In this document: one piece after another, positions 12,978 to 53,195 of the stretch
Numbering within the stretch: position 1 is the stretch's first letter
Layout: each line of letters starts with the position of its first letter
Sequence record: NC_028248.1
DNA: 64,000 nucleotides
DNA from: Escherichia phage slur16
Reading direction: 5' to 3' (one strand)
Position numbers and translations under genes: made by a program
Notes under the pieces: model-generated
What the model was told of the DNA's origin: nothing
The model's input: the letters and a program-made list of their open reading frames with translations, nothing else
Databases searched by the model: none

Positions 12978-13018
12978 TAATGTATTTTACCACAAAGATG
13001 CATCAAAAGCAACAATTT

Positions 13019-13696
13019 TTAAAAACTGCGTTTGCGTCTTGGGTGGCGAGGAGGTTGGTTATTTAGACCACTGATAGGTGTAATCCCCTGGACATCGAAC
13101 GGTCCGTTGCTGTTTTCATTAAATTTAACCCGAATTCCTTCGTCTACACGAACACCACCAATGATAATCATTCTGCTGTAAGCATCTAACTCAGAATCTA
13201 CATAGTCTGGGTGTGCCAGCAGCCAATCAAGAAAATCCTTCCATTGGGCGTAGGAAGATCCACCACGAATCTCTATGGTCTCATCACCTATTTTTTCCAG
13301 ACGGGAAGTTATACTTGCATTACCACTGGACACTTCCTGCATCATCAGCCACCGCACAAGTTGCACAAGAACATTGTACTTAAGCAGCGGTAGCTTATCA
13401 GGATCTGCCGGATAATTTAGTTTCAACTTCTCCATGTCAAGGAATGTTTTAATTACCTCATCAGGGAGAGTTTCCTCATCAACATTGCCAAGCAATAACC
13501 TCATAATATCAATAAGAGGTTGGTCTGGATCAGGTTCCGGAGGCACAGGATCTTCTTTTGGTGGTTCTTCTGGGGTATCGACTACACCATCATGGTTAGG
13601 CGGTGACGGGATAATCTCTTCATCTTCATACCATGCCATTTGAAAATACCTCGTAAAAATAAAGCCCCATTCCTGATTTGGAAGGGGCCTTAACAA
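13019..13696 (-). CDS. head completion / connector protein
   Basis: 225 aa ORF with Pro/Glu/Asp-rich N-terminal segment. Confidence 0.35.
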   Translation of the reverse strand: MLRPLPNQEWGFIFTRYFQMAWYEDEEIIPSPPNHDGVVDTPEEPPKEDPVPPEPDPDQPLIDIMRLLLGNVDEETLPDEVIKTFLDMEKLKLNYPADPDKLPLLKYNVLVQLVRWLMMQEVSSGNASITSRLEKIGDETIEIRGGSSYAQWKDFLDWLLAHPDYVDSELDAYSRMIIIGGVRVDEGIRVKFNENSNGPFDVQGITPISGLNNQPPRHPRRKRSF

Positions 13697-13698
13697 AA

Positions 13699-14526
13699 TT
13701 ATGCCAGTGCAGCCTCAAAATCTTTCATCATATTTTGGAAAGTTTTTGCCTTACTTAAGGTAACACCGTACTCTTTAGCGAAGGTTTGGAGTGCATCTTT
13801 TGAACCACTTTTGTCATCTTCGTTGTTAAGAGCTGCGGCCTGTTTAAGGATTTCATCCTTATTCTCAACGGCTACAAATGAGGAAGAGGATACAGTCACA
13901 TCTTGCGGATCTGCTACAGTAACTTCACCGTCACCACCAGGTTCAGTAGGACCTACAGGTGGCTCCGGCTCTGGTTCAGGCGGTGGAGCTATCGTAGAGA
14001 CCAGTCCAAGATTTACAACCTGAGAACGTTTCTTAGGCCACTCAATGGTGAAAGTTTGGGTATCTTCTTCATAAACAATGTTGCATTGCTCATCGTTTAT
14101 GGTCACTTTTTTAGGCATCCCTACAGGGTCCCATAGATGGCCCTCTGCCACGGAAACTTGGAAAGCCGCATCTACCTCTTTAAACACTGACGGGGTGAGT
14201 GTGATATTGACATCCCCGCTTTGCAGTGTTAAAGTGCTTTCATCAAGGTTCTCTGTGAAGAACAGAAGAATAACACCCATACGGATAGTTGAAATACCAG
14301 TATCAATTGGCAGGCCTGTGTGTTTTGCAATCTTCTCGAAGAAGTCTACAATCGTTCTGCACGGATAGTGAACACTGCCAATAACGAATTCTGTTGGTGG
14401 CAGCAGGGCTGATAAACCAACATTGATTTCTGGATTGTATTGTGATAAAAATTGATAAAAACTTAACTGATTGTTGAAAACTCTTAATAGAGGATCATAC
14501 TCGACTGGATATACAGCTCTCTTCAC
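13699..14526 (-). CDS. head-associated structural protein
   Basis: 275 aa ORF directly downstream of capsid gene and terminator; PEPEPEPP linker. Confidence 0.35.
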   Translation of the reverse strand: MKRAVYPVEYDPLLRVFNNQLSFYQFLSQYNPEINVGLSALLPPTEFVIGSVHYPCRTIVDFFEKIAKHTGLPIDTGISTIRMGVILLFFTENLDESTLTLQSGDVNITLTPSVFKEVDAAFQVSVAEGHLWDPVGMPKKVTINDEQCNIVYEEDTQTFTIEWPKKRSQVVNLGLVSTIAPPPEPEPEPPVGPTEPGGDGEVTVADPQDVTVSSSSFVAVENKDEILKQAAALNNEDDKSGSKDALQTFAKEYGVTLSKAKTFQNMMKDFEAALA

Positions 14527-14550
14527 GGGACACTCCTGTTAAACCCTAAT

Positions 14551-14582
14551 AAATAAAAAGGGGAGGGGAGAACCCCCTCCCC
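14551..14582 (-). terminator. rho-independent terminator after major capsid gene
   Basis: Perfect hairpin GGGGAGGGG-AGAA-CCCCTCCCC; minus-sense U-run from plus 14551-14559. Confidence 0.7.
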
Positions 14583-14606
14583 ATATGGGATGAATCACCT
14601 TAGTGA

Positions 14607-15614
14607 TTATTCACTTTTCAGAGTTACTTTAACAACCAGCTCTGGACGGGTGTTAACTGCCAGCATAGAAGTTTCAGATTCAATCTTCTCTTCACGCAGG
14701 TATGCAGAGTGTTTATACCACATGTACAGTTCCTGTGCTGGAGTGTTTGCTTCGTTAACATCGTCTGCCGGAGCAAAGTGCAGCTGGAACATCTGATCAA
14801 TACCCATCGGCAGAATGCGAGCTTCTTTCTTAGGAATATTGCCAGAGATATCTTCGATAAAGGTGATACCTTTATGCTCAAACACACGGTATACGCTGTC
14901 TTGACCGCCAGCACCCAGACGGCGACGCAGAGGTTCCTGAGCAGAGCCGTAATAGGTGTATGCCAGTTCTACCAGCGGGTGATGAGTAACAGCACTGAAG
15001 AACTCCGGTGAGCACAGGGCTACAATGCGATAGCCAGCTGCGTTATCACCAGCTTGCAGTGCGATGTGCAGACGAGCTTCTTCCAGAACCTCCATAGGAT
15101 CCTGATCTGCTTTTGCAGGGTCGATCTCAACAGACTTCTGAGACACACCCCACAGAGTGTAGTAATCATACTGGCAGGTAGCGTCACCAGGTGCATAGGA
15201 TTTACCCAGAATAGCCTGGAACAGCGCTTTCTCACGCAGTGCTTCATGGGAAACACGGATACGGCGAACAACGCGGGTCACTACGTCCTGAACAGTTTTC
15301 GGAGCATCAGGGGTGAAGTAACGACGGAAGTTCTGGACATCTGCAGCAGTGATGCCTTTATCCAGAGGGAAGAACGGGATGTTCAGGTTTTTAACCTGAG
15401 CACGTTCATTACCAACGTAGTTACGCTCACCACCACGACGGCGTGCTGGAATGTCGGTTACAACTTCATCAACACGCTCAATCTGAGCAATTGTTGAGGT
15501 GCCGAGACGAGTTTCGAACAGATCCATACCGGTAATCAGGCGAAATTGACGCGGAACAAGGTCCAGAGTAGCACCTAAATCGACAATGCCAAATTCATCT
15601 TTACGAGTAATCAT
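14607..15614 (-). CDS. major capsid protein (lambda E-like)
   Basis: 335 aa ORF after decoration and scaffold genes, followed by strong terminator; composition resembles lambda gpE-type capsid proteins. Confidence 0.7.
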   Translation of the reverse strand: MITRKDEFGIVDLGATLDLVPRQFRLITGMDLFETRLGTSTIAQIERVDEVVTDIPARRRGGERNYVGNERAQVKNLNIPFFPLDKGITAADVQNFRRYFTPDAPKTVQDVVTRVVRRIRVSHEALREKALFQAILGKSYAPGDATCQYDYYTLWGVSQKSVEIDPAKADQDPMEVLEEARLHIALQAGDNAAGYRIVALCSPEFFSAVTHHPLVELAYTYYGSAQEPLRRRLGAGGQDSVYRVFEHKGITFIEDISGNIPKKEARILPMGIDQMFQLHFAPADDVNEANTPAQELYMWYKHSAYLREEKIESETSMLAVNTRPELVVKVTLKSE

Positions 15615-15666
15615 TTATTTCTCCAAAGTAAAACTTAAATATTTTTCCCGAACAATTTAGGGCTTA

Positions 15667-16053
15667 TTATTCACCAATAGTCTGGACGTGAACTTTGTTA
15701 CCTAAAGCTTCCAACTTATCCAGAATTCTTTGGTCTGCTTTAGCTCCATCTGCACCTAACAGCATGTCTTTTGCAAAGGTGACACCATGGACGGCAACAA
15801 CCAGGTTATAGGATTGTCCTACTTCTAACGGTTTTGCAAGATGAACCGTACCAGCATCTTTGACAAGAGCACGGTCAACAAGAACGCCGTACACATCAGA
15901 ACCGTCTGCGTTAGCGATGGTCCCGGTTTTTGTTACAACAGTGCCAGCGTGGTGATGCTCTGTCAGTGTTACCTTAATCTCTTTAAAATTGTAGCCAGCA
16001 TCGCTAGAATCAACTTTGCCGAGCACGATATCAGAATATTGAGCGGTAATCAT
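15667..16053 (-). CDS. head decoration protein (lambda D-like position)
   Basis: 128 aa Gly/Val/Ala-rich ORF immediately upstream of capsid gene. Confidence 0.5.
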   Translation of the reverse strand: MITAQYSDIVLGKVDSSDAGYNFKEIKVTLTEHHHAGTVVTKTGTIANADGSDVYGVLVDRALVKDAGTVHLAKPLEVGQSYNLVVAVHGVTFAKDMLLGADGAKADQRILDKLEALGNKVHVQTIGE

Positions 16054-16073: not shown

Positions 16074-17051
16074 TTATTTGTTAGATTCTGCACGTGCACG
16101 AGCAAGTGCTTTTGCAACGTTTTCAGCAAGAATTTCTTCTGCGGATTTTGCAATATCATCCACAACAGGTTCGCCATCATTACCATGTTCAGTGGTGGCA
16201 AACTCTTCTTTGGTTTTATGCACCTCTGCTTCCAGCTCTTCAATTTTTGCTTGAGCTTTCTCCAGCATAGCTACGATAGGTTCGTTAGCTTTTTCCAGCA
16301 TGAAGTCAACTAGGGTTGCATGATCTTCTTCACCAACAAAGCTTAAAGCTTGAGCCTTAGTCAGCATTTTAGCTTTTTCAACTTCAACCTGGGCCTTGAT
16401 GATTTCTTCAGCTTTACTCTGGGTTGCTTTCAGCTCTTCTACTTGCTTCAGCAGATCCAGATACTCTTTAGTTTTGGTTACGTCCACCGGATTCTCCTCG
16501 GTATTTGCGGATTTTGCAACATCATCCACCTCGGCAGTTTTATCCACCTCAGCAGGTTCCTGTACCGCCTTGATCAGGTTCCCTTCTTTATCGAAGAGAT
16601 CAGCGGTTACTTGTTCAAAAATCTGTTGTGTTTTTAACAGGCTGTACTGATCTACCACGCTAAGCTGCTTACCTTCTTTTGCAGCTTTATGAATGGTCAC
16701 GTTATCACAACGCTCTTCCAGCCATGCAATACAAGACTCTGCGTCAGCTTGCGCCCATTCCCAATCAGGATGCTCTTTGGCCCAAGCCTCCTCTTCAATC
16801 TCAAAACCAAGCATGTGTGCAAGTGCTTTAGCATCATCATACCACATATCGAAGAAACGACGCAGGTATTCTTCAAAACTAAGCTCCACAGTAACTTGGC
16901 GAAGTGCCTTAACAATATCGTCTGTTAACTGCTCAGGCTTAAGATCACTCTTCATCAAAAGAGATACAGGTCTGTTGTTAGCGCTATAGCCTTGCGCCTT
17001 ATGGCACAGGGCAATCCCCTTCTCTTTAATAGTAATCGTTTTTTCAGACAT
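16074..17051 (-). CDS. scaffolding protein
   Basis: 325 aa, acidic, C-terminal half is coiled-coil-like (EELKATQSKAEEIIKAQVEVEKAK...); between portal and capsid genes. Confidence 0.5.
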   Translation of the reverse strand: MSEKTITIKEKGIALCHKAQGYSANNRPVSLLMKSDLKPEQLTDDIVKALRQVTVELSFEEYLRRFFDMWYDDAKALAHMLGFEIEEEAWAKEHPDWEWAQADAESCIAWLEERCDNVTIHKAAKEGKQLSVVDQYSLLKTQQIFEQVTADLFDKEGNLIKAVQEPAEVDKTAEVDDVAKSANTEENPVDVTKTKEYLDLLKQVEELKATQSKAEEIIKAQVEVEKAKMLTKAQALSFVGEEDHATLVDFMLEKANEPIVAMLEKAQAKIEELEAEVHKTKEEFATTEHGNDGEPVVDDIAKSAEEILAENVAKALARARAESNK

Positions 17052-17470
17052 TATTCATTGCCCTCTTCTACAACACTGATCCCGAAGTTTACGTTGGTAA
17101 TTTCACCAGTTTCTTCATCAACATTACCTGTTGCCTGAATGCTTAGGCCACCAACAATGCCAGCCTTCTTAGCTTCCCATAATTCAGGATTATTGTATTT
17201 AACTTTAGCAACCCAAGAGCCAGCCTTGATGACCTGCTCAGTGCCAATTACTACAACATCAAACTCTTCTTGAATCCACGTCTTTTCAATAGTGAAAGCA
17301 TCTGTAGAGGTCAAGTGAAAAAGGTTTTCAGAAACTAGGCCTGCGGCGTATGCTGCGTCCCAGTTATCTTTAGCCTTTTTGATGGTGTCTTTACTCATCC
17401 ACTCACCGTGAGCATCTTTAGTGTCAGGCTCGTAGATGATTTCGTAGGAAATCATTTCTTCCTGTGGCAT
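17051..17470 (-). CDS. head morphogenesis protein (possible prohead protease)
   Basis: ORF between portal and scaffold; start placed at internal ATG 17470 to avoid 88 nt overlap with portal gene. Confidence 0.3.
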   Translation of the reverse strand: MPQEEMISYEIIYEPDTKDAHGEWMSKDTIKKAKDNWDAAYAAGLVSENLFHLTSTDAFTIEKTWIQEEFDVVVIGTEQVIKAGSWVAKVKYNNPELWEAKKAGIVGGLSIQATGNVDEETGEITNVNFGISVVEEGNE

Positions 17471-17537
17471 CTTATTCCCCATGTGGATTATTTTATCACG
17501 CCAAAGGAGGTTTTGCAACCCCCTGTGTTGATAATTT

Positions 17538-19094
17538 TTAATTTTCCATGTTGGATATGGAATTATCTCTGGTTGATGACATCTTAGAAGTGCCGTTGCC
17601 AGTGGATCCTGCAGCCATTCCATCACCAGCCCTACTAATGTCCTGGCCCAAGAGCTTCATCAGCTCTTCCTGATCCATGTCCTCGTCAAATCTTTCATCA
17701 AACCCGCCTACTTCAAGAATCTTATTAATTACTGCAGGAGTTTTTGGCAAGTAACCTACAGCACCGATCCTCTGGACAAACTTGGAGAAGCTCTCCATAT
17801 CCACTTCTTCAATCAGACCAGGTTTCAGTTTAGGCATATCATCATCTTCAAGGATGATACCATTCAATGCCAGAAGCTGCGGAATAAGATCTTTATTGAA
17901 GGCCTCAGTGATAATATCTATATCACGCTGAACAAAATGACCATGGATAGACTGTTTTGACTCAGACAGAGAGAAGGACCCAACGTTATCGTTACCGAGG
18001 TTAATAAAGCCAGCACCGAAACGGTCAAGAATCGCCTTCTTACGGGCATCAATCAAATCTTTAGTGGAATACTGCTTACCCATACCGTCAACCCCCTTCA
18101 GGGTCATGGAGTAAAGCTCTTTACCAGACTTATCTCTATCAGACGGAAGTATAAAGAAACTTTGCTCACCACTATGGGCGTTTGCTGCGTCAAGCATAAG
18201 GTCTGCAACCATTCTCCCTTCCATTGAATTCGGGTCAATGCTGGCCTTGTTCAAAATATTGGAAGGAATTTTCAGCTCAAGCACACCACCAAGGTCTTTG
18301 GAACAGCCAACAACCTCAAGGTTTTCAATCAGAACTTTCTCACGGAAAGATCTGTAGCAACCTATCATCGGTGACACACCTGCAGGGTTAGATTCTGTTC
18401 CTGACAGGGTCATGAGCATAAGCTTTTTAGCAGGGATGAAAATTTCAGGCTCATTAAAGCCTTTTGAAGGCATTGCAGCAAGAGGTCCAGCCCAGCGTGC
18501 ATTCTGAGTGTTTAGAAATGCATTAGGTGATTGATAAATACCTGTCAGTGTTCTACTATTCTTGTCAAAGACAAACGGCTCTGATCTGGACAAACTGGCC
18601 TGAGGTCGGAATGCAATTTTATCAATAAGAAGCATCCCGGCATATTTACCTTCTTTCTCTCTGCGGTATACTTTCTCAAACAGTGAAAAACCATACTCGT
18701 TAAAGGTAGCTGCACTTCTTGCAATATCTCGAAGAGTTTGTTGGTTTGCCAAATTACGCAAAGAATACTCTATAAGCTCGGCAGCTTTCTTAGAGTCTTC
18801 ACTTTTAACATTATAAAGGATCTTAAAATCATTAAATGCTTTCGTGATGAAAACATATTTTGTATCTAAGGCAGTAGCAACTGTGGAATCACATTTCATA
18901 GTCTCCACTGTAGCAATCAGCTGAGGCCAACGCAATTCCTCAACCATCATAGATTGCGATTCTGCCATAATTTGGGAAAGTGCGCCAGAACCGATCTCAC
19001 TCATACGAACATTATGAGTTGGTGCGCCTGCGTTCCCAGATTTATTCACAGTTTTGGCTGTGGCGTTGTGTTTCCTGCGGTTCTTTTTGGACAC
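17538..19094 (-). CDS. portal protein
   Basis: 518 aa ORF immediately downstream of terminase large subunit. Confidence 0.7.
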   Translation of the reverse strand: MSKKNRRKHNATAKTVNKSGNAGAPTHNVRMSEIGSGALSQIMAESQSMMVEELRWPQLIATVETMKCDSTVATALDTKYVFITKAFNDFKILYNVKSEDSKKAAELIEYSLRNLANQQTLRDIARSAATFNEYGFSLFEKVYRREKEGKYAGMLLIDKIAFRPQASLSRSEPFVFDKNSRTLTGIYQSPNAFLNTQNARWAGPLAAMPSKGFNEPEIFIPAKKLMLMTLSGTESNPAGVSPMIGCYRSFREKVLIENLEVVGCSKDLGGVLELKIPSNILNKASIDPNSMEGRMVADLMLDAANAHSGEQSFFILPSDRDKSGKELYSMTLKGVDGMGKQYSTKDLIDARKKAILDRFGAGFINLGNDNVGSFSLSESKQSIHGHFVQRDIDIITEAFNKDLIPQLLALNGIILEDDDMPKLKPGLIEEVDMESFSKFVQRIGAVGYLPKTPAVINKILEVGGFDERFDEDMDQEELMKLLGQDISRAGDGMAAGSTGNGTSKMSSTRDNSISNMEN

Positions 19095-19196
19095 AAGCTT
19101 TACCCCTCAAAACAGTATAACAAAATAGCCCTCGTGTTAGAGGGCTAGTATCTCCGATTACTCTATTCTACCACATCTAATTAAGATTGGCAACAC

Positions 19197-20318
19197 TTAG
19201 ATAAAACGCTTGAACATAGAAGGTGATGAGATTGATGGAATCACACAAGGAAGTGCTACTTCCTCTTTCTCCAGGAAATTAATAGCAGAAGCTACACAGT
19301 CAGCCCAGTCGTCTTTTCTGTTAAATGTTGATCTTTCCCCGTTGAATTTTTCAAGTTCAGTCAGAAATGCTTCCAGAGTATCAGGATGGAAACTGGATTT
19401 TACAATCCTCACCATTCCTTGTTGGGCAAGATTGGCAAAAGGTGAGAACCTTGTCAGTTTAGATTTGTTGGAAGGCATTGGGTCTTCTTCAACCCTAAAC
19501 CCTTCGGCAAGCAAGGATCTGGAGGAGGTTAAGAACTCACTCTTACCTGCCTGACCGGGGTCCACAGAGAATACGATTATACAATCATCACCATCAAACT
19601 GCGCCTGTTTCCTGATGATCACATCTCGTTCACCAGCCTTTTTACAGAACTTGCCTTCTAGACCTGTGGAATACCTCCCGTCATCCACGTTCTCAGGACA
19701 ATAATCACCGGACAGGTAATAAAAGCCGTCGCTATCTTTACTTACCTTAACACTGGCGGTAAAGTCAGGAAATTTATTACCGGAAGTTCTCTCGGTTCCT
19801 GCCTTATCCCATGCCCTGCAAGATACTGATCCAAGGGGTACTCTATCGGCATCACGAAGGAAAGATCTTTGAAAATAGTTTGCGCCCTCAGGCTTTGCAA
19901 ACCAGTTACCATGAAGAAGCTGAGCTTTTTCCAGTTCCGGCAGACCTTCAAGGAAAGCAAGGTATTCTGGGTTGTCTCTTAAGCAAACAGGATTATCGAA
20001 TATTGTTGCGCCTATAAACGAGAATGACAACGGTCTTGGCTTGATCTCCACACCAAGTCCGTTAACCGTGGTGTATTTCTCTATCAACTCTTCTTTAGAG
20101 TCCCCCCAGATAAATTCACCGTCGCGTCGGATAAAATATCTTTTCTTACCGCATTTCTCCGGATCTGGATACCCTTCATCGTCCAACCACCACCTAACCA
20201 GTTTGGCAAGCATGTGTTCTGAATCGGGGTTACAGCTGATAACCATTCTTGATGGATACTTTGACTGAGATCGCAGACGAGACATCAGATAGTCTATCTG
20301 CTCCCATTCGAATTGTGT
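19197..20318 (-). CDS. terL: terminase large subunit, exon 2 (nuclease domain)
   Basis: Contains ISCNP coupling motif and acidic nuclease-type C-terminal domain; frame stays open upstream of the ORF-track ATG to ~20321 (TTQFEWEQIDYLMSRL...); 3' splice site approximate. Confidence 0.75.
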   Translation of the reverse strand, partial: TQFEWEQIDYLMSRLRSQSKYPSRMVISCNPDSEHMLAKLVRWWLDDEGYPDPEKCGKKRYFIRRDGEFIWGDSKEELIEKYTTVNGLGVEIKPRPLSFSFIGATIFDNPVCLRDNPEYLAFLEGLPELEKAQLLHGNWFAKPEGANYFQRSFLRDADRVPLGSVSCRAWDKAGTERTSGNKFPDFTASVKVSKDSDGFYYLSGDYCPENVDDGRYSTGLEGKFCKKAGERDVIIRKQAQFDGDDCIIVFSVDPGQAGKSEFLTSSRSLLAEGFRVEEDPMPSNKSKLTRFSPFANLAQQGMVRIVKSSFHPDTLEAFLTELEKFNGERSTFNRKDDWADCVASAINFLEKEEVALPCVIPSISSPSMFKRFI

Positions 20319-20637
20319 CGTTTATGTTCGGGCAAGGTCGCTAGTCTTGCCCCGCCATTTTCAGGCAGCTGCATGTCTCCATGCAGACCAGACTATATCT
20401 TATAAGCGACAACAACCGCTTATCCTCCCGTTTCGAATCGCTTGATTCTACGTCTTTCGACTAGTCGTTGAACGTTCATCCTCTCGGATGCTTCGCTGCG
20501 GATTATCTAAATTAACACACTGTTACCATACCTTCGATCTCTCTTCGAAGCCTCTATCATGTTACCATGACAGGTTGGTGGTATTAATAGTAAAGATTTC
20601 CCCGCAATTAGGGAGGTTTTACGAGAGCTACAAATTA
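20319..20637 (-). mobile_element. group I self-splicing intron (ORF-less) in terL
   Basis: Minus-sense conserved elements in order: P AAUUGCGGGGAA (20609-20598), Q AAUCCGCAGC (20504-20495), R GUUCAACGACUAGUC (20473-20459), S AAGAUAUAGUCUGG (20401-20388); no ORF; splits Walker ATPase from nuclease domain. Confidence 0.8.
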
Positions 20638-21063
20638 ACCCTCATCGAAGCAAACCATGGTGTACTCAAGCCCTTGATGGTTAAGCTTATCTTGTACATA
20701 CTCCATGTGGCAGTATTTTACAACAGCTCCCTTTTTGCTTCTATCCCACTTGCCAGTGTTCGGATCAAACCGTGGAAAAATGAACTTATGATCCTTCTCT
20801 CTGAACTTTGGCTTAATGTTTTCAGGCAGATCACTATAAATAGCTACCGCTTTAGGCCATAGTCCACCCTCACCTTCCAACTGCGGGGTTGTTCTTCGGA
20901 ACATAACCACAGAGCTGTGGGGGTCATCAATAATTTTAAGTGGCATCAATTGCAAGAGGAACGACTTGCCAGACCCTGCGGCACCGCCGATTACCAAAAT
21001 ATCTGCATCGTTTTCGAGGATCATCTTCTGCTTTTCAGAACACGGTCCGTAAATCTTAGACAT
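20638..21063 (-). CDS. terL: terminase large subunit, exon 1 (ATPase domain)
   Basis: Walker A GGAAGSGKS and Walker B-like VCFDE; ORF-track stop at 20635 lies in intron sequence. Confidence 0.8.
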
Positions 21064-49459: not shown

Positions 49460-49489
49460 TTGACAAAGCTTTGTTGAGTTGGTTATAAT
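49460..49489 (+). promoter_or_regulatory. sigma70-like promoter (near consensus)
   Basis: TTGACA (49460-49465), 18 nt spacer, TATAAT (49484-49489). Confidence 0.6.
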
Positions 49490-49979: not shown

Positions 49980-50017
49980 AAGTACTTGGCACATCTCAAT
50001 CTGAAAGGAGTCCCAAC

Positions 50018-50806
50018 ATGGGTCGAGCTAAAGAAACAAAACGCATGCGTGATGAAGCTAGAGAGGCTCGCAAATCTGATCGCCTGCGTAAGGCTGCTGA
50101 GAAATTTGCTGACGAAAGAGAGCACACCGCTCCAGCTCTCCGACCAATGAATAAGAAGCAGCAAAAGTATCTTGATTATCTAGGGTCACGTAAGATTATT
50201 ATTGTAAACGGTGTGTTTGGATCCGGTAAGACATTCATGGCATCTGCATATGCAGGTGATCTTCTGCGTAAGAACGAGATTGATAAGATTATTGTTGCAC
50301 GTCCTTACGTTCAGACAGGAAAGACTTCAGGATTTAAACCTGGAAATGCAATGCAGAAACTGTGGCCCTATCTTCGAAGCATGATGGACACGATTTGTCG
50401 TCGTGTTGGCAAAGGTGCTTTTGCCGCAATGCTGGGAGACGGTCAGAACAGCCGTATCGAGATTTGTGAAGTTGAAAGCATTCGTGGTCGTAGTTTCGAT
50501 GAGCGATGCTTTGTCCTGATTGACGAGGCACAGCAAACTAACCCTGAAGAAATGTTGTCAATTATCACAAGGATCTCTGATCAAGCCACCCTTGTAATTA
50601 TGGGTGATAATAGCCAACGTGACATCCCTGGTAAATCTGGCCTTGCATGGGTGACGGATTTCTTTACTCGTCATCCAGATCCTGAGGTTGGAATGATCAG
50701 CTTTGATAGTCCAGACGATGTCGTTCGTTCTGGGTTGGGTCGTCAGATCGCACTCAATCTTATTGAGGATCGTGCAAATCATATTTGGACCCCTGTTTCC
50801 GAGTAA
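50018..50806 (+). CDS. phoH: PhoH-like ATPase
   Basis: Walker A GVFGSGKTFMA and Walker B-like VLIDEAQQ; ~262 aa. Confidence 0.8.
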   Translation: MGRAKETKRMRDEAREARKSDRLRKAAEKFADEREHTAPALRPMNKKQQKYLDYLGSRKIIIVNGVFGSGKTFMASAYAGDLLRKNEIDKIIVARPYVQTGKTSGFKPGNAMQKLWPYLRSMMDTICRRVGKGAFAAMLGDGQNSRIEICEVESIRGRSFDERCFVLIDEAQQTNPEEMLSIITRISDQATLVIMGDNSQRDIPGKSGLAWVTDFFTRHPDPEVGMISFDSPDDVVRSGLGRQIALNLIEDRANHIWTPVSE

Positions 50807-50850
50807 TACAGAAGGGTGGTTATTCCACCCTTAAATATCTAAAACAGTTG

Positions 50851-50879
50851 TTGACAAATAGGTAAGCTTTAGATATTAT
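50851..50879 (+). promoter_or_regulatory. sigma70-like promoter
   Basis: TTGACA (50851-50856), 17 nt spacer, TATTAT (50874-50879); same TATTATCGG downstream motif as promoter at 33327. Confidence 0.55.
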
Positions 50880-50907
50880 TATCGGACAAAACAGAGAGAA
50901 GGACAGT

Positions 50908-51219
50908 ATGGCTACAATACAAGAGAAACTGAATAAAATATACTGCCTGTTTGTCTATAACGGCGAGACAATTTTGGCAAATAAGGGATCCAAGAATGTG
51001 TGGACCAAGGACAGCGGTGGTAATATAATTAACTTAGCGTTGCTACGTGAGCGCCGACACAGATTCTTTATCGAGTCTCGAATTATTGAAAGCAGCACTT
51101 GCTACAGAACAGGCGATAAAGTAATTGTTGACAATGATACGTGGTATGTGGTAGACTGGCAATCATTGAGCTGTGATGCTTCTGACAATCGTAAGTATTC
51201 CATAGTGATTGCTAAATAA
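50908..51219 (+). CDS. hypothetical protein
   Basis: 103 aa ORF behind promoter. Confidence 0.4.
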   Translation: MATIQEKLNKIYCLFVYNGETILANKGSKNVWTKDSGGNIINLALLRERRHRFFIESRIIESSTCYRTGDKVIVDNDTWYVVDWQSLSCDASDNRKYSIVIAK

Positions 51220-51279
51220 AGGTAAATGTGAATCAGGTTTAAATAAATAGCTTTCAACTTCCAATATTAAGGATTTCTC

Positions 51280-52329
51280 ATGAATTTAACACCTCGCAGA
51301 ACCATGGTACACGGCATGAAAGAAAAACAGAACGGTTTCGAACCTATGAGTAATAAAATGTTTGGTATGCCGGGCGGTATCATGGAAACATACAGCTACC
51401 CAACACCTGTTGTTGACCACGTTCTTTATATCGACGATTTGGAAGACTTACAAGATCATATGTCTCGTCTGCAGACGATCCGTATGGCTCAGCCGGAAGA
51501 AAGCATTCGGGTGATCATCAATAGCCCTGGGGGTTGCGTGCACATTGCAATGGCTTATCTGCAGGCATTCCGAGAGTCTCAGGCAAGCGTTGTTGCACAT
51601 GCTGAAGGGATGTGCTGCTCTGCTGGAACAATCTTATGGCTTGGTTGTAAAGAACGTACTGTGGCTCCGGACACAGAGTTTATGTTCCACTACTATCAAG
51701 GTGGCACTTATGGTAACGGTGTGAACATGAATACTCAGGTCAGCTACTGGAAAAAACGTTTTGAACGCCTGATCGAAAAATACTACGGTGGGGTGCTGAC
51801 AGAAGATGAGATCGCATCCATCACAGCTGGTGGCGAAGTGTGGTTGGACGGAGAAGAGCTGGCAGCACGCACTGGAGCTATTATTCTGGATGAAGGCAAC
51901 ATACAACGCATCCAGAACGGACAAAAACCGAAAAAGCTTCTGGCAAAAGGTGATGAAGAAGGCGTGTTAGGTGAAGCAGGTCTTCCGGAGATTCACCAGT
52001 GCACATCTTTAGATGAGTTAGTTCATGCTGTTGAATCTGCAAAAGCGGGTGGTTCGAAAGGTGATGTTCACACTGTGTTCCTGAATCTGCAGATGGAAAG
52101 TGGCGAGACCGTCAGAATTGCCCTGAGTGAGATTACTTCAGAAGATCTGCAGAGATTCTCTGTCGTTGAACTTCAGGATATTCTGTCTCAATTGAAGACT
52201 ACTCTGAACGGCGGTGAAGAGGTTAAGGTGAAAGATAAGACTCGCAAGCGTCTGGTGGACAATATTATTAAAACAGCAAAAGAGCTCAATGAAAAAATCC
52301 TGGGTGCAGGAATTGTCGAAGAAGCTTAA
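51280..52329 (+). CDS. ClpP-like serine protease with ~150 aa C-terminal extension
   Basis: ClpP motifs INSPGG, Ser-site-like EGMCCSAGT, His-site-like MFHYY; located in early region, not head module. Confidence 0.65.
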   Translation: MNLTPRRTMVHGMKEKQNGFEPMSNKMFGMPGGIMETYSYPTPVVDHVLYIDDLEDLQDHMSRLQTIRMAQPEESIRVIINSPGGCVHIAMAYLQAFRESQASVVAHAEGMCCSAGTILWLGCKERTVAPDTEFMFHYYQGGTYGNGVNMNTQVSYWKKRFERLIEKYYGGVLTEDEIASITAGGEVWLDGEELAARTGAIILDEGNIQRIQNGQKPKKLLAKGDEEGVLGEAGLPEIHQCTSLDELVHAVESAKAGGSKGDVHTVFLNLQMESGETVRIALSEITSEDLQRFSVVELQDILSQLKTTLNGGEEVKVKDKTRKRLVDNIIKTAKELNEKILGAGIVEEA

Positions 52330-52341
52330 ACATTAATTCTA

Positions 52342-52364
52342 AAGCCCTCTTCGGAGGGCTTTTA
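52342..52364 (+). terminator. rho-independent terminator after ClpP-like gene
   Basis: GCCCTC-TTCG-GAGGGC hairpin then TTTT. Confidence 0.6.
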
Positions 52365-52380
52365 TGATCTGGAGATTTGC

Positions 52381-52914
52381 ATGACTTGTGCTAGAAAACC
52401 TGATGAACAACGTAACGCCTACGATGAGTATGTGACACCGGAGTGGTGTGCAGAAGGGCTGTATGACCTTATTCCGTTCCCAGAAGACTGGACCTACTTA
52501 GAGCCTTGCAGGAATAGTGCCTCAGGTGTGTTCTACTCCCGTATGCCGTTAGGATCTGCATGGGGAGAAATACAAGAAGGTGTTGACTATCTGAATACAG
52601 AATACAACCATGTTGACTGTATTATCACCAACCCACCATACAGCCTGGCTCGTGAGTTTGTAGACAAGGCGTTGAAAGATGCTGACGTAGTTATTATGCT
52701 TTTGCGTCTTAATTTTCTGGAAAGCAAAGCCAGATTTGAATGGTGGCTTGATAATGCACCTACTACTGTGATCACAATATCTAAGCGTCCATCATTTCAA
52801 TCAAACGGCAGAACTGACGGGCAAGCATATGCATATTTTGTGTGGGATAAGAAAAACCGTTTAGACTTGCCGCCGTTTATGTGGTTGGCACCCCCAGAGG
52901 TAGACCTGAAATGA
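52381..52914 (+). CDS. small DNA methyltransferase (NPPY motif)
   Basis: IITNPPYS catalytic motif; 177 aa. Confidence 0.5.
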   Translation: MTCARKPDEQRNAYDEYVTPEWCAEGLYDLIPFPEDWTYLEPCRNSASGVFYSRMPLGSAWGEIQEGVDYLNTEYNHVDCIITNPPYSLAREFVDKALKDADVVIMLLRLNFLESKARFEWWLDNAPTTVITISKRPSFQSNGRTDGQAYAYFVWDKKNRLDLPPFMWLAPPEVDLK

Positions 52915-53195
52915 AAATGAGTGCTAAGGACAAATTACACCAGCTAGCGCTAAAACGCCCTGTAACGCTCCCTGACGAGCTTAACTCCATTTATGATGCG
53001 ATTGTAGGGGAGATACAAAATAAAGCGTTAGCAGGCTTTCTGGGGTGCGGATTTTCGATAAATCTACCCTCGCATCTCTCAGATTACTTCCCGCACATTG
53101 TTGGAGATTTAAGGGCAGGAGGTCTGCAGGTAGATGTTGTTGGCATCTCCCCAGAGAAAAATAATACGGTTGCCTACTTGACAGTAACCTGGTAG
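52911..53195 (+). CDS. hypothetical protein
   Basis: Start at ATG 52911 overlapping upstream stop (ATGA). Confidence 0.4.
   Translation: MKMSAKDKLHQLALKRPVTLPDELNSIYDAIVGEIQNKALAGFLGCGFSINLPSHLSDYFPHIVGDLRAGGLQVDVVGISPEKNNTVAYLTVTW

Follow-up and report, generated by a model that had tools for sequence, protein, structure and literature searches.

A ClpP-fold peptidase encoded away from the head module of Escherichia phage slur16, with a C-terminal tail probably common to HslV-type peptidases of the same genomic slot

The 64,000-nucleotide stretch of Escherichia phage slur16 analysed here (NC_028248.1, hereafter the window) carries on its plus strand a gene for a ClpP-like protease, referred to below as the target gene and target protein (Table 1). 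The initial annotation had placed this gene between phoH and a methyltransferase gene, which is correct except that a small open reading frame (ORF) of 103 aa intervenes. It had also pointed out three ClpP hallmarks and a long extension, and both are confirmed: the ORF translation contains INSPGG (residues 80-85), GMCCSAGT (Ser114) and MFHYY (His137), in agreement with the ClpP alignment, Pfam and AlphaFold/Foldseek results given below, and is followed by an extension of about 150 aa (residues ~200-349) conserved across the family. As a ClpP-like protease the gene is already annotated and is not new. Over positions 50000-53000 the sequence equals that of Escherichia phage slur12 (Vequintavirus; 100% identity), and about a hundred rV5-like Vequintavirus phages share more than 98% identity with it. 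The slur12 counterpart, 100% identical to the target protein, is named 'ATP-dependent Clp protease proteolytic subunit', most GenBank relatives of the gene carry the ClpP subunit name, and the 2013 genome paper on rV5 (PMC3606486 Table S3) already listed gp122 as 'ClpP (ATP-dependent) protease subunit'. The corresponding protein family, PHROG 5410 ('ATP-dependent protease'), is of the long, Vequintavirinae type; its match spans residues 24-345 and profile positions 4-322 of 323 (E 2e-155) and takes in the C-terminal extension, which is therefore a conserved part of a known phage family. In all, 39 homologs with 40-99% identity to the target protein were found. About 19 records named 'Campylobacter phage' (MG0656xx), with C. 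jejuni given as the host, match E. coli rV5-like phages at 98.6-99.9% identity across positions 50000-53000, which casts doubt on the host labels and suggests contamination or mislabelling.

The core of the target protein has the ClpP fold. AlphaFold modelled residues 45-215 with predicted local distance difference test (pLDDT) scores of ~85-95, the top 50 Foldseek matches in the PDB were all ClpP (E ~1e-10, template modelling scores of 0.63-0.72, target-normalised), and a PDB sequence search with the target protein returned ClpP chains only (~1e-7). To map features, the target protein was aligned with E. coli ClpP and a set of 12 diverse homologs; the core of this alignment contained no gaps. 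Conservation of the motifs extends to two of the catalytic residues: Ser114 and His137 are invariant across 25 homologs, down to 40% identity. It does not extend to the third: at the position of catalytic Asp171 of ClpP the target protein has Glu, 9 of the 12 family members aligned have Gln, and only gp211 of phage ICP1 retains Asp. Residues 1-44 showed no counterpart to the axial loop or helix A of ClpP in the alignment with the E. coli protein, and residues 1-40 were modelled with pLDDT below 50; invariant and near-invariant columns are nonetheless present in this N-terminal region.

Profile comparison with ClpP and head-protease families, as proposed in the initial annotation, gave a divided answer. 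Pfam CLP_protease (PF00574) matches residues 59-168 well above threshold (2.1e-12, 47.7 bits, cutoff 20.2), whereas the NCBIfam equivalog for clpP, TIGR00493, scores only 33.2 bits against a cutoff of 308.6, and the remaining NCBIfam ClpP models, with cutoffs of 228-361, give no more than 39 bits. The best curated profile is NF045542, 'head maturation protease, ClpP-related', with 60.3 bits, which exceeds the ClpP scores and falls below its own cutoff of 120. Early-region homologs from other phages display the same NCBIfam pattern, with NF045542 scores of 54-80 bits that are all below cutoff. The target protein also matches several PHROG profiles of ClpP-related head-maturation proteases (1684, at 8e-22, and 94, 2976 and 133).

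Clues on the relationship to the host unfoldases came from residues that we take to form the cleft of E. coli ClpP in which the IGF/LGF loop of ClpX or ClpA docks, i.e. Y60, Y62, F82, I90, M92, F112, L114 and L189. The equivalent family positions, obtained by alignment rather than on a structure, are R77, I/V79, E99, H107, E109, T127, A/S129 and I/L202. Five of the eight are polar or charged and invariant in the family (Y60 to R77, F82 to E99, I90 to H107, M92 to E109, F112 to T127). At the Arg/Asp inter-ring sensor, E169-R170, the pair preceding the catalytic Asp, corresponds to G184-G185. The target protein is thus predicted to have no hydrophobic cleft for ClpX/ClpA docking. That the apical replacements are themselves invariant suggests an interface that is conserved yet unlike that of ClpP. 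Because several defining features of ClpP are not found, the 'ClpP' label overstates membership, and the target protein is not a canonical ClpP. That it might nevertheless be a genuine ATP-dependent ClpP, forming tetradecamers alone or mixed with host ClpP and driven by host ClpX/ClpA to break down particular host or phage proteins, would fit the retained fold, Ser/His residues, handle helix and Pfam score, but is unlikely in view of the equivalog score, the polar or charged cleft residues, the Gly-Gly sensor, the non-conserved catalytic Asp and an N-terminal region that is predicted to be disordered and cannot be aligned with axial loop and helix A.

Table 1. Features of the window and of related phage sequences. 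Coordinates refer to the window unless preceded by the label of another sequence.
Feature	Coordinates	Strand	Remarks
Target gene and its surroundings
PhoH-like ATPase gene	50018-50806	+	PHROG 170, 3.8e-75; upstream neighbour of the peptidase slot
Sigma70-type promoter	50851-50879	+	TTGACA-N17-TATTAT (11/12), upstream of 103-aa ORF; corresponds to rV5 P121
103-aa ORF	50908-51219	+	rV5 gp121 ortholog; PHROG 5456; between phoH and protease gene
Protease ORF (target gene)	51280-52329	+	349 aa, ATG start (ORF and translation); rV5 gp122 ortholog; PHROG 5410
N-terminal region, residues 1-44	51280-51411	+	predicted disordered; conserved motif F28, G29, Y40, P41
ClpP-fold catalytic core, residues ~45-215	51412-51924	+	includes handle helix 150-169
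Ser114 codon	51619-51621	+	predicted nucleophile; aligns with Ser97 of E. coli ClpP (mature numbering)
His137 codon	51688-51690	+	predicted general base; aligns with His122 of E. coli ClpP (mature numbering)
Glu186 codon	51835-51837	+	position of catalytic Asp171 of ClpP, by alignment
Linker, residues 216-243	51925-52008	+	Lys/Glu/Gly-rich, low-confidence, disordered; pLDDT <50 at residues 223-239
C-terminal tail domain, residues 244-342	52009-52305	+	helix, beta-hairpin, then putative helix-extended-helix (HeH/SAP/Rho_N-like) unit
Intrinsic terminator	52344-52365	+	GCCCTCTTCGGAGGGC + TTTTAT, directly after protease gene; corresponds to rV5 t122
Methyltransferase gene	52381-52914		downstream of protease gene
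Head cassette
Portal	17538-19094	-	
XkdF-type putative prohead protease	17051-17470	-	139 aa; between portal and scaffold-like protein
Scaffold-like protein	16074-17051	-	acidic, 325 aa; short PHROG match at C-terminus, residues 281-320
Decoration protein	15667-16053	-	
Major capsid protein	14607-15614	-	gpE-like
275-aa protein	13699-14526	-	short PHROG match at C-terminus, residues 231-274
Group I intron in large-terminase gene	20369-20647	-	Rfam RF00028, 84.3 bits, E 6e-22; ORFs 20635-21063 and 19197-20285
Other phages
ESCO5 gp077, HslV-family	L011:27546-28238	-	keeps N-terminal Thr
Further phage HslV-family peptidases	L012:2501-3154; L013:1673-2548; L014:2501-3223		

The target gene lies ~32 kb from the portal gene and on the opposite strand. 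The head cassette on the minus strand comprises, in this order, the large terminase (TerL), the portal, a 139-aa ORF, a scaffold-like protein, a decoration protein and the major capsid protein. The statement of the initial annotation that this module shows no obvious protease was wrong. The 139-aa ORF yields matches to Pfam PF14550 (Peptidase_S78_2, putative phage serine protease XkdF; 1.1e-17, 64.6 bits, cutoff 24) and to PHROG 3017 ('head maturation protease', 1.2e-13). Its homologs carry the name 'prohead protease' in EmilHeitz, a BASEL phage, and 'capsid protease' in ICP1 (gp125). The head genes of ICP1 are arranged as in the window, with coat gp122, decoration gp123, scaffold gp124 and protease gp125 (PMC7567579, PMC10945586), with experimental validation of the scaffold (PMC10945586). 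No PDB sequence relative and no NCBIfam match were found for the XkdF-like protein, so that its assignment as a protease rests on Pfam, PHROG and the annotation of others. It is more likely than the target protein to be the capsid-maturation protease. Many GenBank/RefSeq records name homologs of this ORF 'DNA methyltransferase', 'DNA-binding protein' or 'hypothetical'; the first of these names appears to stem from PHROG 1530, a profile with a fused methyltransferase, and its propagation hides the head protease.

Published mass spectrometry of rV5 virions (multidimensional protein identification technology) also bears on this question. Processing of the capsid N-terminus, for which the initial annotation proposed to look, is not seen there: peptide coverage of capsid protein gp60 begins at residue 5/6 (R.KDEFGIVDL... 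and K.DEFGIVDL..., starting at K5 and D6), and therefore no N-terminal delta domain has been removed. Among the 19 virion proteins identified, gp122 and gp63 are absent and the scaffold-like gp62 is represented by two peptides. These data agree with a lambda-like head, in which the protease removes the scaffold and the capsid protein is not trimmed.

Transcription signals around the target gene are of the early type. The promoter and terminator listed in Table 1 were predicted as P121 and t122 by the rV5 authors (Table S4; -14.9 kcal/mol for t122), and the terminator, a GC-rich hairpin with a T-run, also appears in the annotation of phage Murica. Together they would bracket the 103-aa ORF and the protease gene as one predicted unit. 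A perfect sigma70 consensus (12/12, TTGACA-N18-TATAAT, 49460-49489, +), corresponding to rV5 P118, lies upstream of the block of small ORFs and PhoH. The late-promoter motif proposed for rV5, TGGTAAAATA, occurs in exact copies only in the structural region, and the window holds 18 matches to it versus 6.4 expected. Copies with one mismatch are found directly upstream of the XkdF-like gene (17489-17498, -) and of the portal gene (19164-19173, -). In ICP1, some of the genes for nucleotide metabolism in the gp176-gp211 block peak at the middle time point, and the capsid cluster gp122-126 is late (PMC7567579). PADLOC returned no defence-system relative for the protease or for the 103-aa ORF. A role of the latter as dedicated partner of the peptidase was considered and found to be unsupported: ORFs upstream of the peptidase in phages 4MG and ESCO5 have in common with it only a weak motif of ~20 residues (E 5e-5 to 2e-3, probability 12-63%), and PHROG assigns as its 4MG ortholog gp207 rather than the peptidase-adjacent gp206.

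The early, nucleotide-metabolism context of the ClpP-like gene is conserved in at least six lineages. Within the Vequintavirinae, the order PhoH, one to four small ORFs, ClpP-like gene, methyltransferase is also found in 4MG (Seunavirus) and PBES02 (Certrevirus). ICP1 has PhoH (gp208), an HNH insertion, gp210 and then the ClpP-like gp211 (326 aa), the looser spacing being due to the inserted homing-endonuclease gene gp209 (L005:3038-3667; PHROG 953, 9e-75). In Pseudomonas phage KIL4, phoH overlaps a ClpP-like gene of the short size class (205 aa). PAK_P4, the N4-like Alteromonas phage AD45-P1 and a T5-like Klebsiella phage have short homologs (~180-205 aa) as well, again surrounded by early or nucleotide-metabolism genes; in none of these phages, KIL4 included, do they lie in the head module.

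Comparison with phages of related architecture showed that the same slot may be filled by a different enzyme. Phage ESCO5 (Phapecoctavirus, Stephanstirmvirinae) has a head module collinear with that of the window, with an XkdF-like gene of 39% identity, and an early locus of the order glutaredoxin, lysozyme, PhoH, small ORF, HslV-family peptidase, small ORF, methyltransferase. The identity of the peptidase is supported by PHROG 1040 (1.6e-63), Pfam Proteasome (above threshold) and HslV matches in the PDB (down to 4.9e-9), and both the N-terminal Thr ('TTII') and the GSG motif are retained. No ClpP-like gene was found in the complete 149-kb ESCO5 genome by tblastn and family hidden Markov models (best E 7 and 0.26, the 0.26 match being the HslV-like ORF itself). 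An HslV-like peptidase occupies the same slot in JohannJBalmer and in Serratia phage KKP_3264 (Justusliebigvirus), and Shewanella phage 1/4, with NrdB, endolysin, PhoH, HslV-like gene and ligase, mirrors ICP1. Related myoviruses thus share a slot, NrdB/glutaredoxin - endolysin - PhoH - small ORFs - peptidase - methyltransferase/ligase, that holds either a ClpP-like or an HslV-type peptidase. Among Escherichia phage records, 217 have XkdF-like genes versus 105 with ClpP-like and 107 with HslV-like genes, which is consistent with mutual exclusivity of the latter two. Linkage of PhoH to the peptidase slot is kept in 4MG, PBES02, ICP1, KIL4, ESCO5, JohannJBalmer and Shewanella phage 1/4; around the HslV-like gene of Aeromonas phage phiA009 no PhoH was present within the 4.8 kb examined, so that the linkage is not universal or, in this phage, may reach beyond these 4.8 kb. 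The phage HslV-family proteins carry C-terminal tails of 60-135 aa and keep the catalytic N-terminal Thr. About 235 metagenome relatives were found for the Aeromonas-type protein, with 69-100% identity to the query among the 120 listed.

The tail of the target protein is modelled by AlphaFold as a domain separate from the core (residues 244-342), with F293, E297 and R322 as invariant residues. No significant Pfam or PDB sequence match was obtained for this C-terminal domain, and a HMMER profile search of the tail against 1.84 billion representatives returned five proteins only, all of the target's own family or fragments. The tails of HslV-like proteins resemble by eye those of ClpP-like proteins, and single-sequence tests of this similarity were equivocal. 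Starting from the Aeromonas HslV-like protein and from ICP1 gp211, homologs were gathered, their tails excised, and the resulting profiles compared by hhalign against column-shuffled nulls. ICP1-type ClpP tails matched the Shewanella HslV tail with 98.2% probability (E 4.3e-14, 81 columns, 0/100 shuffles) and the Aeromonas-type HslV tails with 96.7% probability over 118 columns, that is the whole tail (E 3.2e-10). For rV5-type tails, to which that of the target protein belongs, the match to Aeromonas-type HslV tails had a probability of 64% (E 6.5e-5) and a score of 32.2, compared with 11.3±2.0 (maximum 19.0) for the null, none of 200 shuffles reaching it (z ~10), and 11.2 for the reversed control. 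The module consists of a 'P(L/F)(T/S)RExLxxLSK(D/E)ELIxxxFGE' motif, an acidic linker, a beta-hairpin and an HeH-like unit, 'LKxIADxLgIKYaHNIgxEKLxxKI'; tail ends are exemplified by IADDMEIKYPHNIGIEKLRQKILDCL of the ClpP-like P0181 and IADQLDIKYAHNIGIEKLRIKIIDSL of the Shewanella HslV-like protein. On these profile comparisons, a homologous tail on two unrelated protease cores, ICP1-type ClpP and HslV-type, is firmly established, and the tail of the target protein is probably a member of this module. The catalytic core has apparently been displaced non-orthologously, ClpP-like against the unrelated HslV-type, with the PhoH-adjacent position and a homologous tail being kept. We found no earlier description of a tail module common to ClpP-like and HslV-type peptidases of one slot.

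The exchange of cores bears on several alternative explanations. With HslV as another core dependent on an unfoldase, it could mean that each core co-opts its cognate host ATPase, ClpX/A or HslU, as expected of a genuine ATP-dependent ClpP; a tail common to ClpP-like and HslV-like cores favours one partner over two host ATPases. A candidate for this partner is the PhoH-like ATPase encoded alongside, or else some other phage protein, which the tail would recruit into a two-component degradative complex with an interchangeable core. PhoH lies directly or closely upstream whichever core is present (Vequintavirinae, Stephanstirmvirinae, ICP1, KIL4, Shewanella phage 1/4), homologous tails occur on both cores, and the invariant polar patch in place of the ClpX cleft suggests a conserved interface of another kind. 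Nevertheless, we regard this proposal as quite improbable. The phages have a long syntenic backbone in common, so that adjacency is not independent evidence. Moreover, PhoH-like proteins are, by Pfam, helicase-like P-loop ATPases; they are not known to be unfoldases, and many phages that lack such peptidases have them. The peptidase genes of PAK_P4, AD45-P1 and the T5-like phage have no PhoH gene next to them, and the ClpP-like protein whose gene overlaps phoH in KIL4 belongs to the short size class.

A weakly active or inactive ClpP-fold decoy or inhibitor, for example one that poisons host ClpP rings or sequesters a host factor by its tail, would be in line with the Gln that most family members have at the catalytic Asp position and with the lost oligomerisation sensor, and inactive or conditionally active ClpP paralogs exist, such as Listeria ClpP1 with Asn. 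This is the most improbable of the explanations considered, as Ser114, His137 and the motifs around them do not vary between sequences that share only 40% identity, and the HslV-like protein that takes the same place keeps its catalytic Thr and GSG, arguing for selection on proteolysis itself.

The initial annotation had left two possibilities, a prohead protease acting in trans or a regulatory protease with host or phage proteins as its targets. In the former case, the ClpP-like protein would enter or act on procapsids via its tail and remove the scaffold or process head proteins. The best curated profile and several PHROG matches are those of ClpP-related head-maturation proteases, such enzymes typically bear C-terminal extensions of a targeting or scaffold-like kind (e.g. 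lambda gpC/Nu3), and HeH-like C-terminal motifs are also carried by the scaffold-like protein and by a protein encoded near it in the head module. The C-termini of these two proteins match phrog_35194 and phrog_1051, 'minor head protein inhibitor of protease' (Table 1), and may be short terminal helical modules like that of the protease tail. This case is now disfavoured, and we hold it to be very unlikely: the XkdF-type protease occupies the canonical position in a portal-protease-scaffold-decoration-capsid series, the rV5 major capsid protein has an unprocessed N-terminus and gp122 was not detected in virions, the target gene forms part of a sigma70 promoter/terminator unit in the early region, and its nucleotide-metabolism context is maintained across lineages. 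The ICP1 homolog, too, lies in a block with middle-peaking genes, in contrast to the late capsid cluster. Furthermore, ESCO5, with a homologous head module, has no ClpP-like gene and fills the slot with an HslV-type peptidase, a fold that to our knowledge has never been implicated in capsid maturation; the target gene is thus not needed for the capsid type that it accompanies.

We therefore favour the second possibility, a non-structural protease aimed at host or phage proteins, on the basis of context and exclusion, with the qualification on the 'ClpP' label made above. In its full form, the reading that we consider rather probable is that of a non-structural ClpP-fold serine peptidase, not a prohead protease, whose core is directed by its tail and does without canonical ClpX/ClpA docking. 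The gene would be transcribed by host RNA polymerase from the sigma70 promoter alongside early/middle nucleotide-metabolism genes, and the need of the phage would be for a generic self-compartmentalising peptidase core, whether ClpP-like or HslV-like. Its substrates in the infected cell may be peptides, or host or phage proteins that are unfolded or loosely folded. The conserved tail, with its beta-hairpin and HeH/SAP-like helices, would direct the interchangeable core to a common partner, substrate or location, and canonical docking to host ClpX/ClpA would probably not be used. Candidate tasks are bulk peptide or protein turnover feeding phage synthesis, the removal of specific host proteins, or the PhoH-coupled machine discussed above. 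The patchily distributed ClpP of jumbo phages has independently been suggested to target host proteins (Iyer et al. 2021, PMC7824862).

Several observations weigh against this reading. Besides the way in which the cleft residues were placed, NF045542 is the nearest curated profile, which leaves room for descent from a capsid protease or a residual function of that kind. The XkdF-type protein is itself only a putative protease, and the absence of gp122 from a virion set as shallow as 19 proteins is weak evidence. A late-like motif with one mismatch lies inside the 103-aa ORF (51018-51027), ~250 bp upstream of the protease gene, and might allow late transcription of the latter. The match between rV5-type and ICP1-type tails is not significant (E 0.35) and that to a merged tail profile is weak (E 0.1), so that the probable link of the rV5-type tail to the module comes from one profile pair. 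Finally, we found no experiment on the target gene in the functional literature on phage ClpP, rV5, ICP1 gp211 and EdH4 CRISPRi-ART.

'ATP-dependent Clp protease subunit' genes outside the head module are common in large lytic phages, and for the family of the target protein this label is misleading. Likewise, the real head-protease candidate can now be relieved of its frequent 'DNA methyltransferase' label. The pattern of slot and tail suggests that function hinges on the tail and its partner. One may speculate, as an unlikely further step, on a hitherto undescribed modular system: a chambered peptidase that is addressed by its tail and whose core, ClpP-fold Ser or HslV-fold Thr, is interchangeable. 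Its partner would be the PhoH-like ATPase or a target bound to nucleic acid. If true, this would amount to unfoldase-independent or PhoH-coupled degradation early in infection. Such a peptidase could also be the activity sensed by protease-activated cyclic oligonucleotide-based antiphage signalling (CBASS) in Vequintavirinae infections. A 2026 preprint describes a CBASS cGAS/DncV-like nucleotidyltransferase that is activated by phage-protease cleavage and protects against Vequintavirinae, with a specificity unlike that of T4 gp21; it leaves the responsible protease unnamed, and the Vequintavirinae supply two candidates, the gp63-like (XkdF) and the gp122-like protein.

Two differences from phage Murica were noted elsewhere in the window. 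The large-terminase gene is split by an insertion of ~326 bp relative to Murica, which contains a group I intron (Table 1); introns in TerL have already been reported for rV5 (PMC3606486). The window is also ~1.15 kb shorter than Murica immediately downstream of the capsid gene (~13000-14600, versus Murica L001 ~13000-15760), and the gene content between capsid and neck genes differs.

Among known systems, cellular ClpP (S14, PF00574, TIGR00493) resembles the target protein in its alpha/beta fold, handle helix, Ser and His motifs and Pfam score above threshold. It differs in equivalog score, in having Asp where the family has Glu or Gln, a hydrophobic cleft instead of a polar patch, a sensor pair instead of Gly-Gly, and a recognisable axial loop and helix A; the target protein adds a linker and tail of ~150 aa. 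ClpP-related or S49-type head-maturation proteases (NF045542; PHROGs 1684, 94, 2976 and 133; lambda gpC type) provide the nearest profiles after PHROG 5410. They do not depend on an unfoldase docking cleft and, like the target protein, often have C-terminal extensions. Unlike them, the target gene lies outside the portal-capsid interval, in an early/middle nucleotide-metabolism region and behind a sigma70 promoter, and its product coexists with an XkdF-type head protease and is not found in virions whose capsid N-terminus is unprocessed. The XkdF/Peptidase_S78_2 protein (PF14550) is a serine-protease candidate of the same phage, but a different protein, in the head module. The short 'ATP-dependent protease' family (PHROG 1827: ICP1 gp211 core, PAK_P4, KIL4, AD45-P1, T5-like Klebsiella phage) has a homologous core (2.6e-40), the same non-structural context and the same NCBIfam pattern, with 36% identity between ICP1 gp211 and the target protein; most members are ~180-205 aa long and, unlike the target protein, have no long extension. 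ICP1-type tails are clearly related to the HslV type and weakly to the rV5 type, and ICP1 keeps Asp at the third catalytic position. Phage HslV-family peptidases (PHROG 1040; ESCO5 gp077, Shewanella phage 1/4 S14_24, Aeromonas phiA009_0005) accompany the same head module in the same PhoH-adjacent slot and have tails homologous to the ICP1 type and probably to that of the target protein, and cellular HslV likewise forms a self-compartmentalising core. Their fold is unrelated, that of an Ntn-hydrolase with N-terminal Thr, so that the likeness is one of analogy and of an appended module in common, not of enzyme homology.

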